NCBI GenBank assembly: GCA_902788445.1
Contig: CADAKE010000007.1
Coordinates: forward strand, 1,182 to 65,181
Reading direction: 5' to 3'
DNA length: 64,000 bases
Source: an uncultured Eubacteriales bacterium
Lineage (GTDB): Bacteria > Bacillota > Clostridia > Christensenellales > Aristaeellaceae
This document shows positions 3,607 to 52,753 of this stretch, one piece after another. Below the pieces are notes generated by a model. The model searched no databases and was not told the origin of the DNA. It saw only the letters and a list, made by a program, of their open reading frames with translations. Both the position numbers and the translations under genes were made by a program. Position 1 is the first letter of the stretch, and each line of letters opens with the position of its first letter.

Positions 3607-4908
3607 TCACATTTCTAATGCAATTTTCATTTGATCGACTGTTTCCAGCGCCCGGCTGGCGATCTTTTCATACCGGGCCTGCTTGCCGCCGCGCACCTTT
3701 TCCGGCCAGGAATCCATGATGCCGTAGGTGACGTTCATGGGCTGGAAGCTCTGGTTCTGCGCGGACACATAATGCGCCAGCGCCCCAAGGGCGGTGGTGC
3801 GCGGGAAGTCGGGCAGAGGTCTCCCCTGCTGCTGCATGGCCGCGCAGATGCCCGCCACCATGCCGCTGCCCGCGCTTTCCACATAGCCTTCCACGCCGGT
3901 CATCTGGCCCGCGAAGTACAGGCCGGGGCGGGAAATCATCTGGTAATGGCTGTCCAATAATCCGGGGCTGTTCAGGAAGGTGTTGCGGTGCATGACGCCG
4001 TAGCGGGCGAACTCCGCGTTCTCCAAGCCGGGAATCATGCCGAACACCCGCTTCTGCTCTGGGAATTTCAGCCGGGTCTGGAAGCCCACCAGGTTATACA
4101 GTGTCCCAGCCGCGTCGTCCTGGCGAAGCTGCACCACGGCGTAGGGGTCTTTTCCGGTTCTCGGGTCTGGCAAACCCACCGGTTTCAGTGGCCCGAAAGC
4201 CAGCACCATGTGGCCCCGCCGGGCCATGGACTCTACCGGCATACAACCCTCGAACACCTTCTTTTCCTCAAAGCCGTGGATGGGCGCGGTCTCCGCGTTC
4301 AGCAGCGCCTGCACAAAGGCGTCGTATTCCTCACGGCTCATGGGGCAGTTGAGGTAATCGTCTCCCCGGCCATAGCGGGACGCGCGGTAGACCTTGCTCA
4401 TGTCCAGGGATTCCGCCGTCACGATGGGGGCCGCCGCGTCGTAAAAGTTCAGGGTGCTGACCTCCGGCATGGCGGCGATGGCCTCCGCCAGCGCGTCGCT
4501 GGTGAGCGGCCCGGTGGCGATGATGGCGGGGGCATCGGGGATTTCCTTTACTTCCCTGGCCTCGAAAGTGACCAGGGGATGGTTTTTCAGCGTGTCGGTG
4601 ATATACCCGGAAAACGTGTCCCTGTCCACCGCCAGCGCCCCGCCCGCGGGCACCCTTGCCTTGTCCGCCGCCGCCAGCACCAGGGAATCCATGCGGCGCA
4701 TTTCCTCTTTCAGCAGGCCCACGGCGTTTTGCAGCCGGTCGGAGCGCAGGGAATTGGAGCAGACCAGTTCCGCAAACAGCGGCGAATGGTGGGCGGGGCT
4801 GTAGTTTTCTGGCTTTTGCTCGATCAGCGTCACGGGGATGCCCCGCTTCACCAGCTGCCACGCGGCCTCGCAGCCCGCCAGCCCCGCGCCGATGACGGTG
4901 ACGCTCAT
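3607..4908 (-). CDS. trmFO: methylenetetrahydrofolate--tRNA-(uracil-5)-methyltransferase
   Basis: [20 protein letters not shown]-binding N-terminus; 433 aa; conserved position after topA. Confidence 0.95.
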
Positions 4909-13000: not shown

Positions 13001-14209
13001 GTACAGCACTGCCAAAACGAGGAACAGCGTCATCAAAGAATCCGCCTGGCCCCAGGCCGCGCCGGTCAGGATAACGAGGGGATTCACCGCGTACAGCGCA
13101 AGGATCGCCAGCGTCGCTGGGCCGGAGAGCTTTTGCCGCTTTGCTTCCTGATATAGAACAGCGCACAGCGCAATGTCCGCCAGGATGGGCGGCACCTTCA
13201 CCATGAACTCCGTCGCGCCGGTGCCCGTCAGCTTGCCGATCCAGCCGACGACCCACAGGATGAGCATGTATCCCGGCGGGTAGTCGCAATAGCTGAACGG
13301 ATCAACGGGGTCATAGAACCCCGCCGGGCCCGTTTCCGCCATGCGGTTCGCCCAGGCGCGGAAGCAGCCGATATCCACATCGTAGCCGGACACCCGCCCG
13401 GCGATCACCAGCCGCAGCGCGCAGGCCATTAGCAGAATGATGGCCGCAAACCACGCGCTTTCAGAAAGCGGCTTCTTTTTCAGTTCCCGCGCGGGACGGC
13501 GCAGGAAATGGCAGAGCAGGGCAAAGCAAACCACATACGCCAGGCTGACGCCCACCAGCAGCAGCCCGGCATTGGTTTGATTGCCATAGGTGGAATTCAG
13601 CGGAGCGTAATACGTCTCCCGGAACCAGGACTGGGCGGTGTATCCCTCGGGCATGCCTTCTACTTTCGTCAAGGAAATATTCCGGTAATACGCTTCGCCG
13701 ATGGCCTCGCCGCTGTATCCGCCCAGGCGGACGAACACGTTCACGCTGTGCTGTTCTTTTCCCGTGCGGCCATAGAGGTACACCGTCCGCCATTCCCCAT
13801 CGGTCTGGTACACGTTGTCAGAATACAGGTACACGTCCTCAACGGACAGATTCGCGCCCCAGCCGCTTTCCGCGTCGGCCTTGATTTCGCCGCTCAGGCA
13901 GTACAGGGTATCCGGCTCCACCTCCACCGTCTGGGCGAAACGCGCGTCCTTGAGGATGTGGTTCACGATATGGGCAACGGGGCCGTCCTCCGTTTCCACC
14001 ACCTCAAAGTCCGATCCTGTCAGCCCGGCATAGGCGTCCTTGTACCAGCCGACGGGGCTGCCGTCCTTCGTATCGGAAAAATCGCTGTTGACCAGCAGGT
14101 TTTCCCCGGCGGCCGCCTGCTTCTGCGCCGGGCGGAAAACAAAAAAGCAAACCGCGATGACCACCAATACAGCCGCGGCGATGCCGCCGTACCGCTTTAG
14201 ATTCTTCAT
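10034..14209 (-). CDS. 1391-aa polytopic membrane protein with two GT-C glycosyltransferase modules plus CBM-like and discoidin-like extracytoplasmic domains
   Basis: N-terminal anchor followed by a beta-rich CBM-like domain. First TM module has the FRAWANRM...CDYPPGY motif. F5/8-type-C-like segment (NFTVEVSEDGAFWTQ...GRYIRL). Second module has the PMT/GT39 signature YFDEIYHARTGYEH..THPPLGK and a C-terminal 4TM region. Start set at ATG 14209 (AGGAG RBS). Confidence 0.8.
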   Translation of the reverse strand: MKNLKRYGGIAAAVLVVIAVCFFVFRPAQKQAAAGENLLVNSDFSDTKDGSPVGWYKDAYAGLTGSDFEVVETEDGPVAHIVNHILKDARFAQTVEVEPDTLYCLSGEIKADAESGWGANLSVEDVYLYSDNVYQTDGEWRTVYLYGRTGKEQHSVNVFVRLGGYSGEAIGEAYYRNISLTKVEGMPEGYTAQSWFRETYYAPLNSTYGNQTNAGLLLVGVSLAYVVCFALLCHFLRRPARELKKKPLSESAWFAAIILLMACALRLVIAGRVSGYDVDIGCFRAWANRMAETGPAGFYDPVDPFSYCDYPPGYMLILWVVGWIGKLTGTGATEFMVKVPPILADIALCAVLYQEAKRQKLSGPATLAILALYAVNPLVILTGAAWGQADSLMTLFLVLAVLYAVKGKWIFVLPFYIVSVLMKPQALMFGPLGLLALVLQCIQNWKDADARKTLLLDIGKGLLVMAGAALLIVVPFSIHLPADWLITLYSKTMGRYAYATVNACNLYFLFGKNWAAAESSLSGEFLLPFLTYCLAVLPLLAAAIPHAPLFRGKLGEKKDQIRLYTLGGLAAALGVALVILSQSGQLSYATLGTAMIVYSVAVMAALYVFAKDIKHLPVFGAAMLLLLFNTGSMMHERYLFPAAALLLLGYLLNRDARILWLAVGVTVAGFLNVGCALDRNIRIGGASGHLDAPMAGINSDMNVLEYASAAMNCLVCFASLALCGVLSRNGTLEFVPEERTASPLPTEKPTRKMTLRDWIILACVTVAYAVLAFTNLGSMKAPQTAYVSESPEEQIIFDLGEVKEFNMLYYGGIHHYDYNFTVEVSEDGAFWTQSYTASMNQGDCFKWQYVSYIPGGTFPVTLNGRYIRLTANNYSLTLHELLFRDINDKNVFFPVEIAFNSDGNETAANLIDEPDSMEGGDPGWYNSTYFDEIYHARTGYEHLHHLQPYETTHPPLGKVFISWAIAIFGMTPFGWRFAGALAGVLMLPGMYLLGKLFVKRWWGGMAAALFMAFDLMHFTQTRIATIDSFVVLFIIWMMYFMFRWFFQDFFHMPFWKTLVPLGLSGLCMGLGVASKWTACYAGVILAIIFFIGVWRRARLISAAKKTPEKQRTDGQKTAAEKGTKQLLITVASCLIFFVLVPVVIYYCSYIPYFAFDGVGVTPKKVIEAAVGTYFTNGQMGGMLGYHSEPGRGMDHDFYSPWYQWPVIGKPMWYAANSFEPEGYESSIMAMGNPVVWWGGLVCIVVCLAVWIMRHLRKDTSLSLRVKTDDPRTGLLLLCYFGQLLPWILVPRGTYIYHYFPCVPFLILAIVVCLDLLADTGIAAEAANGLRLAASEEEKKQKRAERIAFILLLLLLQTAAALFIFFFPYASGVAVKREWMDAAKWFDRWLWY

Positions 14210-14244
14210 AAAAACTCCTAACAATCAATATTGTCAAGGCGAAA

Positions 14245-14653
14245 AAACGACGAGGCAGGGGCCTGTTCGGCCCCCGTACCCCTGAACCAGGAGGTTTCAC
14301 CTCCTGGACCTCTTGCCCCGGAAGATGCTTGTGCGGTGAAATGAAGTTGGTTCCCGGTGATGCGGGGAAGGACGCGGAAGTTTGACTTGACGCCGTTGTG
14401 CTTCTGGCCCGGCGTCCTTTGGACGCCAACCGGATGCGAAGCATCCGGGAAAGCCGGGGAATAATCCGCAGGGGAAAGCGAGCTTTCCCCCTCGGATTTT
14501 CCCGGGCTTTCTTGGGCCAGAAGCCTTCAAACTTCCCGTAACCCCAGCGCGGCAGGCGGAACTTGCTTTCTATCCCAAACGGACTCAATCGCCTGCTGGG
14601 ATGCAAGGGATGAAATCCCTTGCCGCAGGTCTGGGGGCGCGTAGCCCCCAGCG
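14245..14653. ncRNA. Structured element copy A (candidate large ncRNA, unclassified; orientation unresolved)
   Basis: Sits in a 479-bp gene-free gap. A nested multi-stem core (14402-14522) is closed by TTCTGGCCC/GGGCCAGAA. It is roughly nine-tenths identical to 52482-52602, with paired indels in stems. ORFs across it are not conserved in frame. Confidence 0.5.
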
Positions 14654-14703
14654 TTCCTCTTGCTGCATTTTCTGGATGTTTGTATCTTTGGGGAGCATGA
14701 CGA

Positions 14704-15039
14704 TTAAAAAGCGTTTTTTACATGGCGCAGGCCGTCTGCGCTGATTTCGACGACGTCGAACCGCACCTGCTCCCAGGGATGGGACTGCAAATAATACAGC
14801 GCGGCGTAGCGCAGATGCCCGCGCTTTTTCGCGTTCACTGCCATCAGCCCTTCCCCCGCTTTGCCATTGGGCCGGGCCTTTACTTCCACAAAGACAAGGG
14901 TATCCTTTTCCTGGGCGATCAAATCAATTTCGCCGTGCGGCGTTCGGAAGCGGGTGTGCAGGATGCGCATCCCCTGCTTTTTCAGGTACGCCGCCGCCTG
15001 CTTTTCGCCCAGCAGGCCGGTCAGGAAAACGCTGCTCAT
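14704..15039 (-). CDS. yraN: YraN-family (UPF0102) endonuclease
   Basis: [21 protein letters not shown] motif; 111 aa; overlaps the rnhB stop. Confidence 0.85.
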
Positions 15040-15606
15040 ACGCTGACGAAATGCCCGATGAAGGAGCGCCTGTGCTCCGGGCAGGGGCCGAGGTCTTTCA
15101 GCGCGGCAATGTGCTGGGCGGTGCCGTAGCCCTTGTGCTTCGCAAAGCCATAGCCGGGATACAGCCTGTCCAGTTCCTCCATCTGCCGGTCACGGGTCAC
15201 CTTGGCGATGATGCTCGCCGCGGCGATGCTGTAACACAGCGCGTCGCCATGAATGATGCCCCGTTCTTCCCCGGGCAATCCCAGCCCTTGCAGCGCGTCC
15301 GTTCAGGATGTTGTATTCGTCAATCTCCGCCGCGCTGGCCTGGCCGACGCCCACGAACAGGGCGGTTTCCATGATTTGTTCATACAACTTTTCCCGCCGG
15401 GATTCGGACAGCTTCTTGCTGTCGTCCACCCACAGGAGCAGCGGCTCCTTCGGCATCACCACGCAGGCGGCCACCACATTGCCCACCAGCGGCCCGCGCC
15501 CGGCCTCGTCCATGCCCGCGAAGCGAACGCCCGCCGCCCACAGGGGCTGGTCAGTCCGAATCAGGGTGTCCAGCCGCTCCCGGCGTTTCTCTTCCTGCTT
15601 GCTCAT
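15036..15606 (-). pseudogene. rnhB: ribonuclease HII, disrupted by an internal out-of-frame deletion
   Basis: The N-part (GMDEAGRGPLVGNVVAA ... [11 protein letters not shown]) and C-part ([37 protein letters not shown] ... HRRSF) are in different frames, joining near 15285-15295. About 25 residues expected between NIL and the GD motif are missing. Confidence 0.6.
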
Positions 15607-16465
15607 CTTCGGTTTCTTCCTCTTCCTGACGCGGCGCTTCCAGGGTGATGCGGCCCAGCTTGCCGCCCCGGAATTCATCCAGGATCACCTGGCAGGCCCG
15701 TTCAGTGTCGTATACGCCGCCCTTCATCAGGAAGCCGCGCCCCGCGCACACCGCGTCCAAAAGCGCCGGTCCACGGAGGGAAATGTCTTTGATCTTGAAC
15801 CGTTCCCGCACCTTGTCCGGGGCCATCTCCAGCAGGTCGGTCAGCAGCTGGATGGACAGGGCGGCGGTGTCCACCACCTCGTCCCGGATGGCGGCGATAT
15901 AAGCCAGCCGCCGCGCGGCCACTGGGTCGTCCAGCCGGGGCCAGAGCAGGCCCGGCGTGTCCATGATTTCCAGGTAAGGCGTCACGCGCACCCACTGGTT
16001 GGCGCGGGTCACGCCCGGCTTATCCCCCACCTTGGCGATGCTGCCGCCGTGCAGGCGGTTGATGAGCGTGGATTTGCCCACGTTCGGCACGCCCACGATC
16101 ATGGCGCGAACCGTTTTTTTGATGCCGCGCTGGGCCGCGCGTTCCACCGTTTCCTTCGCCGCGCGGTCGATCAGGGTCAGGGCGTTCTTTGCCTGTTTAT
16201 TCATATCCAGCGCCACGCAGTTGTCGATGCCCCGGCGCTTGAATTCCTTCAGCCATTGAGCGGTCAGGTTCGGGTCGGCCAGGTCGCTTTTCCCCAGCAG
16301 GAGCACCCGCTCCTTCCGCGCGGTCAGGCGCATCAGATCCGGGTTCCGGCTGGAAAAGGGCAGCCGCGCGTCGCAAAGCTCAATCACCACATCCACCCGG
16401 GAAAGCTGATCCGACAGGAGCCGTTTGGCCCGCGCCATGTGCCCCGGATACCAGTTGATTTCCAT
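15551..16465 (-). CDS. rbgA: ribosome biogenesis GTPase A (YlqF)
   Basis: INWYPGHMARAKR, circularly permuted GTPase motifs (LLGKSDL, VGVPNVGKST), 304 aa. Confidence 0.9.
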   Translation of the reverse strand: MEINWYPGHMARAKRLLSDQLSRVDVVIELCDARLPFSSRNPDLMRLTARKERVLLLGKSDLADPNLTAQWLKEFKRRGIDNCVALDMNKQAKNALTLIDRAAKETVERAAQRGIKKTVRAMIVGVPNVGKSTLINRLHGGSIAKVGDKPGVTRANQWVRVTPYLEIMDTPGLLWPRLDDPVAARRLAYIAAIRDEVVDTAALSIQLLTDLLEMAPDKVRERFKIKDISLRGPALLDAVCAGRGFLMKGGVYDTERACQVILDEFRGGKLGRITLEAPRQEEEETEDEQAGRETPGAAGHPDSD

Positions 16466-52270: not shown

Positions 52271-52294
52271 GGAGGCCAAGGGGCCTCCTTTTTT
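52271..52294 (+). terminator. intrinsic terminator
   Basis: GGAGGCC AAGG GGCCTCC followed by T6, 13 nt after the stop codon. Confidence 0.9.
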
Positions 52295-52327
52295 GTTGTT
52301 ACCGTCCAACTATCACATGATGTTTGT

Positions 52328-52648
52328 TAACCAGAGCGAGGGCCTGTGCGGCCCTCGTGCACCTGCACCAAAGGACTTCGTCCTCTGGACTCCAGCAGCG
52401 GAATAGACTTGCGCGAATGATTCAAGCTGCTTCCCGCTGATGTTTGGAAGGACGCGGATACTCCACTTGGCCGCGTTGTGTTTCTGGCCCGGCGTCCTTC
52501 GGACGCCATCCCGGATGCGAAGCATCCGGGGAAAGCCAGGGAATAATCCGCAGGGAAAGCTCGCTTTCCCCTCGGATTTTCCCGGGCTTTCTTGGGCCAG
52601 AAACCCTCACCACCCTGGCGCAGGTCTGGGGGCGCGGAGCCCCCAGCG
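52328..52648. ncRNA. Structured element copy B (candidate large ncRNA, unclassified; orientation unresolved)
   Basis: Same architecture as 14245-14653. Core 52482-52602: closing stem TTCTGGCCC/GGGCCAGAA; hairpins GGCGTCC-TTC-GGACGCC and CCCGGATGC-GAA-GCATCCGGG; three-tier stem GAAAGCCAGGG..AATCCG..GGGAAAGC/GCTTTCCC..CGGATT..CCCGGGCTTTC. Terminal hairpin CTGGGGG-CGCGGAG-CCCCCAG. Confidence 0.5.
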
Positions 52649-52724
52649 TAACCTTTATTGGTTTAGCATTATGTGAAAGGTAACTTTTGGTTCAACAAAA
52701 TTGAAACATTTTTGTAGCCTTTTC

Positions 52725-52753
52725 TTTTCATTTTGGCGCGGCTGTGGTATACT
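52725..52753 (+). promoter_or_regulatory. polA promoter candidate (extended -10)
   Basis: TTTTCA, 17-nt spacer, TGgTATACT (52748-52753), 48 nt upstream of the polA ATG. Confidence 0.5.

Follow-up and report, generated by a model that had tools for sequence, protein, structure and literature searches.

The analysed stretch of DNA (64,000 nt, referred to below as the window) carries a hairpin-rich intergenic sequence upstream of polA, and the question raised by this locus is whether such a sequence is an RNA gene, a polA regulator or selfish DNA. A preliminary description had treated it as copy B of a structured non-coding element that occurs twice in the window and placed it at 52328–52648. 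The existence of two related non-coding copies was confirmed: in the comparison within the window, positions 52340–52609 of copy B showed 80% identity over 273 nt to positions 14259–14529 of copy A, and the terminal hairpin (52613–52649 in B, 14618–14654 in A) was 92% identical between them. No third copy was found in the 64-kb window. The presence of an element at this place was thus corroborated, but its extent had to be revised, as the nhmmer profile of the family matched from about 52307 to 52705 (in two parts, 52307–52609 and 52606–52705). Copy B was accordingly placed at 52313–52705 on the plus strand, with approximate limits.

The 5' arm of copy B, TCACATGATGTTTGTTAACC, begins after a TA at 52311–52312 as read from the sequence; the terminal arms of this copy are diverged and a clean TA...TA flank is not readable. 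The left internal inverted-repeat block (52338–52388), defined by folding and by its inverted homology to the right block, consists of two hairpins, GAGGGCC-TGTGC-GGCCCTC and CCAAAGGAC-TTC-GTCCTCTGG. The folds and the alignment located the central three-way junction, which shows the highest conservation in the family, at 52481–52603, where the closing stem TTTCTGGCCCGG/CTTGGGCCAGAAA surrounds hairpins at 52491–52508, 52511–52529 and 52529–52593. They also placed the terminal hairpin CTGGGGGC-GCGGA-GCCCCCAG at 52626–52646, within the right internal inverted-repeat block.

All the context features listed in the preliminary description were present. Copy B lies directly downstream of the intrinsic terminator of the upstream DUF3783 gene (52271–52298, plus strand; 52271–52288 plus its T run), which is outside the repeat; an exact look-up of the DUF3783 protein found no record. 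The polA promoter-like site, TTTTCA-17-TATACT with TG, occupies 52725–52753 on the plus strand, beyond the profile match, which stops at 52705. On the minus strand, the right arm of copy B contains an inward-facing promoter-like sequence, TTGAAC-16-CATAAT (52668–52695).

Copy B proved to be the same element as copy A, as had been assumed, but not a complete copy of it. A module of about 86 nt, which is present in copy A, in most family members and at the same locus of L079 (same species, 100% identical PolA), was missing from it. The alignment of the L079 copy with the window's copy B revealed 424 identical bases among 426 aligned and an 86-nt gap, with the junction of this internal deletion at 52608–52609, found only in the window's copy B. 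Since the L079 copy was otherwise nearly identical, the form in the window reflects a deletion at strain level or, possibly, a collapse in the assembly. In two same-species assemblies with 100% identical PolA, one of them L079, contigs end inside copy B.

To follow the element beyond the window, one-genome-per-species contigs were searched with an 18-mer from the core. It identified 78 stretches, about 60 of them from two rumen metagenome-assembled genomes (MAGs), RUG563 and RUG14706; the remaining matches were a few in other rumen or gut Clostridia MAGs and otherwise chance matches in unrelated phyla. A second core 20-mer was found in 46 metagenome contigs, 44 of which carried a copy. A profile built from full copies and applied to DNA retrieved from both MAGs detected 40 copies in RUG563 and 35 in RUG14706. 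A lineage of uncultured rumen Clostridia thus carries the element in at least 35–40 copies per genome, and such copy numbers point to selfish DNA and not to a regulator of polA or an RNA gene confined to one locus. Phage genomes and plasmids (BLAST) and viral contigs (pattern scan) contained no match to the element. Many copies were located at contig ends. Short-read assemblies were interrupted inside the repeat in L079 (1–503), L080 (1–202) and at many other loci.

All copies were intergenic, the apparently overlapping ORFs being start-codon extensions. The element itself showed no coding frame: the six frames were equally open, indels broke each of them and none was preferred. Between co-directional genes, 19 copies were antisense and 17 sense, with a further 5 copies between convergent and 3 between divergent genes. 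The two copies in the window are opposite in this respect, copy A being antisense to yraN and the PMT-like gene (both on the minus strand) and copy B being sense to the DUF3783 gene and polA (both on the plus strand). The orientation relative to neighbours is thus random. The preliminary description had proposed asking which genes flank the homologues; these were unrelated housekeeping genes (ABC ATPases, LepA, BipA, polA) at loci that are not conserved. Only ABC ATPases and translational GTPases recurred near copies, and the loci examined, about 0.6 Mb in all, contained neither a multi-copy protein nor a transposase close to a copy. The homologues had been expected at conserved loci, with a distribution tracking mobile DNA named as evidence to the contrary. 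Essentially the latter was observed: the homologues behave as dispersed mobile DNA, polymorphic for presence or absence and with a TA duplication.

A typical copy was 467–484 bp long. From the outside in, it consisted of terminal arms, two hairpin blocks and the central junction, with the module of about 86 nt preceding the right block. The class I arms form imperfect terminal inverted repeats, TA|ACAGTCATGTTGTGAAGG ... CCTTGAGAACATGACTGT|TA; a second arm class has the form GGGCACTTTAAGTCACAA ... TTGTGACTTAAAGTGCCC, and some copies had no arms. Under a strict match, class I arms were present at both ends of 14 of the 62 complete copies, with a diverged form in others. Among these 14 copies with good terminal repeats, 12 had TA on both sides and 11 were 467–484 bp long. 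The two blocks, of two hairpins each, are mutual inverted copies (38 of 61 aligned bases identical). The mean pairwise identity was 87% for the junction, 78–81% for the hairpin blocks and 36–41% for the arms.

Partial or mosaic copies were numerous. An arms-only variant was detected in L004 (1312–1462), which shares its arms and its downstream gene with L041 (1921–2454) and in which an unrelated interior of about 110 nt replaces the 410-nt structured core. In L075 (5150–5220), a solitary right arm, TCTTGAGAAAATGGCTGTTAAGCATTTAGAAAATGG, precedes a ribosome-binding site and start codon by about 30 nt and resembles a promoter region that arose from the end of the repeat. A search for solitary ends flanking an autonomous element gave only the arms-only variant, a displaced arm and this promoter-like solitary arm. 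A different element of about 150 bp, whose terminal inverted repeats TTAGGGAGTGTTCACACTAC are nearly perfect, was found nested in the right arm of two copies (L028, about 4430–4565; L042, about 4760–4900) and is absent from the window.

The clearest view of an insertion was provided by copy A. The synteny ylqF-rnhB-yraN-PMT is kept in relatives, and in four sister lineages (YraN 79–86% identical) the yraN-PMT junction is empty, with only 9–15 nt and the sequence TTTTAA|GGAG or TTTTTGA|GGAG. In all four, the yraN stop codon abuts the PMT ribosome-binding site, and the empty site has one TA-type junction. The window and L132 have 484 bp at this junction, with a TA on each side. Comparison with the empty sites and with L132 delimited copy A as a complete 484-bp element at 14221–14704 on the plus strand. 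It is bounded by the terminal inverted repeats ACAATCAATATTGTCAAGG and CTTTGGGGAGCATGACGAT and separates the yraN stop codon from the ribosome-binding site of the PMT-like gene. The duplicated TA target is found at 14219–14220 (left copy) and 14705–14706 (right copy). The right TA forms the present yraN stop codon together with the last base of the element, and the other TA precedes GGAG. The insertion has moved the giant PMT-like gene 484 bp away from yraN (14203–14225 and 14704–14706), and copy A is oriented so that the sense strand of yraN-PMT has no terminator-like hairpin.

In four same-species assemblies (YraN 99% identical), the TA used by copy A is occupied by an unrelated, repeat-rich insert of about 170 bp, which may represent a second TA-targeting repeat family. 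This insert (L130, 2837–3023; also L131, L133 and L134) is composed of inverted arrays of CAGAGTT/CAGAGTA heptamers. Several YraN homologues were located on contigs of only 525–630 nt, which suggests that repeats flank yraN in many related genomes. In the neighbourhood of copy A, the RNase HII gene rnhB (15036–15678, minus strand) is split into two frames: residues 1–102 of the homologue match the ORF at 15190–15678 and residues 130–209 the ORF at 15036–15278 (96–99% identity to the L130 rnhB). This split suggests a frameshift near 15280–15300, resulting from an assembly error or a pseudogene.

Polymorphism was also observed between RUG563 and RUG14706. Most copies occupied the same sites in both MAGs, with flanks 85–97% identical, and the orthologous copies themselves were from 79% to 99.5% identical. 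A second pair of empty and filled sites was provided by L066 (empty) and L049 (filled), in which a clean duplication was not seen. For L046 versus L042, both orthologous copies were inverted. At one orthologous intergenic site, the element is present in L032 (4676–5158) and a different hairpin-rich filler of about 340 nt in L020 (2749–3086); the filler (CCTTCCCCTCGGAGGGGAAGG and others) has similar short flanking inverted repeats.

The data are best explained if the element is a non-autonomous, MITE-like transposon that targets TA and has imperfect terminal inverted repeats, a reading to which a probability of about 0.7 was assigned. As expected of a MITE, terminal inverted repeats, a TA duplication (copy A), polymorphism at orthologous sites, a lack of coding capacity and many copies were found. 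Selfish DNA of this kind is well known; the family itself is new and stands out chiefly by its size and its ornate arrangement of palindromes. For a bacterial MITE, an element of 470–485 bp with about ten hairpins is large and elaborate. The TA duplication was cleanly resolved at one site only, that of copy A: because TA is palindromic, the flanking TA of the other copies cannot be told apart from the inverted repeat. No autonomous partner with the same ends was found in about 0.6 Mb of loci. The arms are the least conserved part (36–41%) and the junction the most conserved (87%), which is the reverse of the expectation for an active MITE and hints at a function of the interior.

Such an element would depend for its mobility on a TA-targeting DDE transposase of the IS630/Tc1-mariner type that acts in trans from a gene at another place in the genome. 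This type is suggested by the TA target together with the ACAG termini, which we take to resemble IS630/Tc1-mariner-type ends. The interior would be composed of nested palindromes, with two hairpins at each end, in inverted arrangement, around the conserved three-way junction. Complementarity is probably held at the DNA level, by conversion from copy to copy, inversion of hairpin tips and hairpin-templated correction, and not through selection on a single RNA strand. Copy B would be a deletion derivative of a non-autonomous transposable element of about 470–485 bp, which at polA would simply fill the space that separates the DUF3783 terminator from the promoter of polA. When read through from a neighbour, the element would fold into stable RNA hairpins and may alter the polarity or stability of the transcript, presumably as an orientation-dependent side effect. 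By analogy with Correia, ERIC and REP sequences, effects on neighbours through polarity, transcript stability or promoter donation are plausible.

The first alternative is a family of mobile structured non-coding RNAs, in which the three-way junction would be the functional RNA (a scaffold or guide, as in HEARO, omega and bridge RNAs) and the outer parts dispensable. Hairpin pairing is strongly maintained in the family. Both strands of copy B folded far better than dinucleotide shuffles (z of −8.5 for plus and −10.1 for minus), and the same was true of copy A; stability of this degree speaks for an RNA family. In an alignment of 30 copies, 98.1% of cells were paired and 21 pairs (117 cells) were changed on both sides, none of 500 shuffles performed as well and slid controls collapsed. 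Compensatory changes were observed in helices 1 and 3 of the left block and were extensive in four hairpins. They speak for this alternative, but a DNA palindrome would yield them as well. The helices of the central junction, the proposed functional part, were invariant and lend no covariation support. The higher conservation of the junction and of several apparently unpaired stretches than of the termini, and the persistence of copies at orthologous sites between species, are in keeping with this alternative.

A functional RNA should also reveal its strand, and no such sign was detected. The consensus-fold energies were −140.3 (plus) and −139.3 (minus), G·U pairs in helices common to both strands numbered 13 on plus versus 24 on minus, and no strand asymmetry was found in consensus-fold energy, in G·U versus A·C counts or in single-sequence fold energies. 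The preliminary judgement that neither strand could be preferred thus remains valid. The random neighbour-relative orientation likewise argues against this alternative. The loops of some hairpins were flipped to their reverse complement: one read TTT in 43 copies and AAA in 12, and another TTC in 22 and GAA in 1. Near the loops, the changes were mostly CG/GC or UA/AU swaps, outnumbering G·U intermediates, and one-sided intermediates were almost absent. Such strand-symmetric changes are the behaviour of a DNA palindrome (hairpin-tip inversion, templated correction) and not of one-strand RNA selection.

The preliminary description had considered a free-standing RNA gene driven by the minus-strand promoter-like site of copy B; this could not be maintained, since that site is not conserved in the family, and no inward promoter conserved across the family was found. 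A T-rich, terminator-like tail after the last hairpin was present in only 29 of 96 family copies. Rfam yielded nothing anywhere in the window at the gathering score, and in E-value mode (with E values as high as 10 and with the HEARO and IS605-orfB models covered) only chance miRNA-like matches to the long hairpin; no description of the family was found in Rfam or in the literature searched. The lack of a recurrent adjoining protein gene also argues against a mobile RNA, which is considered unlikely. Two further structural proposals were evaluated. The outer arms were rejected as an RNA closing helix, because, within a copy, each arm diverges on its own and two G·G mismatches between the arms are conserved. 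The alternative pairing of AAGGACGC with GCGTCCTT, suggested earlier for both copies, was not borne out, as 8 of 8 pairs were possible only in the window copy aligned, 3 of 8 in most others, and no covariation was seen.

A second alternative is a domesticated cis-acting intergenic module that stabilises or terminates mRNAs, insulates operons or donates outward promoters, as described for REP/BIME, ERIC and Correia sequences. Its appeal lies in the location of copies right after terminators or gene ends, or just 5' of ribosome-binding sites, in the solitary arm of L075 in front of a gene and in copy A, which splits the formerly coupled yraN-PMT pair without placing a terminator-like hairpin in the sense transcript. 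Outward −35-like hexamers, TTGAGA and TTCACA, occur in both arms, but promoter-like sites facing outward were few and only about 10 of 72 arm ends passed a strict scan. Genes pointing away from the element were not enriched (53 away versus 66 towards). The presence polymorphism within a species and the unrelated insert at the same site speak against a required local function, and this alternative appears distinctly improbable.

A related and equally doubtful possibility is that the junction of about 125 nt is a functional nucleic-acid module riding on the MITE, perhaps serving as an RNA or single-stranded-DNA scaffold for a recombinase, a nuclease or a host factor. If true, rumen Clostridia would harbour structured RNA or DNA of a new class, mobile and present in many copies.

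A 5' leader or riboswitch-like regulator specific to polA, for which only the position about 100–490 nt 5' of the polA start codon speaks, was refuted by the distribution of the element and has a negligible probability, in line with the preliminary description: polA has a promoter-like site of its own on the 3' side of the element, relatives with PolA 87–90% identical (L081–L083) have other genes and no copy upstream of polA, and the other copies (about 80) adjoin unrelated genes such as those for ABC transporters, LepA and BipA.

If the element is a MITE-like repeat, as favoured here, a TA-targeting mobile element is active, or was until recently, in an uncultured rumen lineage. A repeat of this kind resembles an ornate non-coding RNA or riboswitch and would be mis-annotated as such, and it fragments short-read rumen assemblies. 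Its presence/absence, orientation and indel variants offer convenient strain markers. The yraN-PMT case indicates that such elements can separate translationally coupled genes without destroying the operon. The element also raises the question of why its interior junction is better conserved than its ends.

Among known systems, HEARO/IscB omega RNAs and IS200/IS605-associated RNAs share with the present element a large, ornate structure, many copies, some of them without an adjacent ORF, and mobility. They differ from it in that TA duplication and terminal inverted repeats belong to the present element and not to IS200/IS605. An IS200/IS605-derived or omega-RNA identity was rejected on the basis of the Rfam result, the absence of an adjoining recurrent IscB/TnpB-like gene and the lack of strand asymmetry.

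REP/BIME/REPIN sequences, mobilised by RAYT (PMC2817692, PMC3116915, PMC3733652), resemble it as GC-rich palindrome mosaics that are extragenic, occur in both orientations, often follow gene ends and keep their complementarity. REP units are 20–40 bp long, carry a GTAG or CGTC tag and produce no target duplication, whereas the present element is a composite of about 480 bp with terminal inverted repeats and TA duplication. No GTAG-tagged units were visible in the family alignment; together with the TA duplication at copy A, this excluded membership in that group. ERIC/IRU, BOX and RUP elements of enterobacteria and pneumococci are likewise imperfect-palindrome or modular intergenic repeats found in both orientations, with size variants due to internal insertions or deletions and with presence/absence at orthologous sites. 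They are, however, about 107–300 bp long and have no sequence similarity to the present element, and the two inverted hairpin blocks, the junction and the optional 86-nt module are specific to the present family.

Correia elements (NEMIS/CREE) of Neisseria (PMC2229807, PMC3184786) offer a further parallel. To our knowledge, no cognate transposase has been identified for them, and the same holds for the present element. They are likewise non-coding, dispersed intergenic repeats in both orientations with a TA target duplication, terminal inverted repeats of about 20–26 bp, a long hairpin if transcribed and outward promoter-like ends. A Correia element is a single simple hairpin of 100–155 bp, in contrast to the 470–485 bp and about ten hairpins of the present element. 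The latter is further set apart by its nested inverted repeats, its conserved three-way junction combined with poorly conserved termini and its host, which belongs to another phylum.
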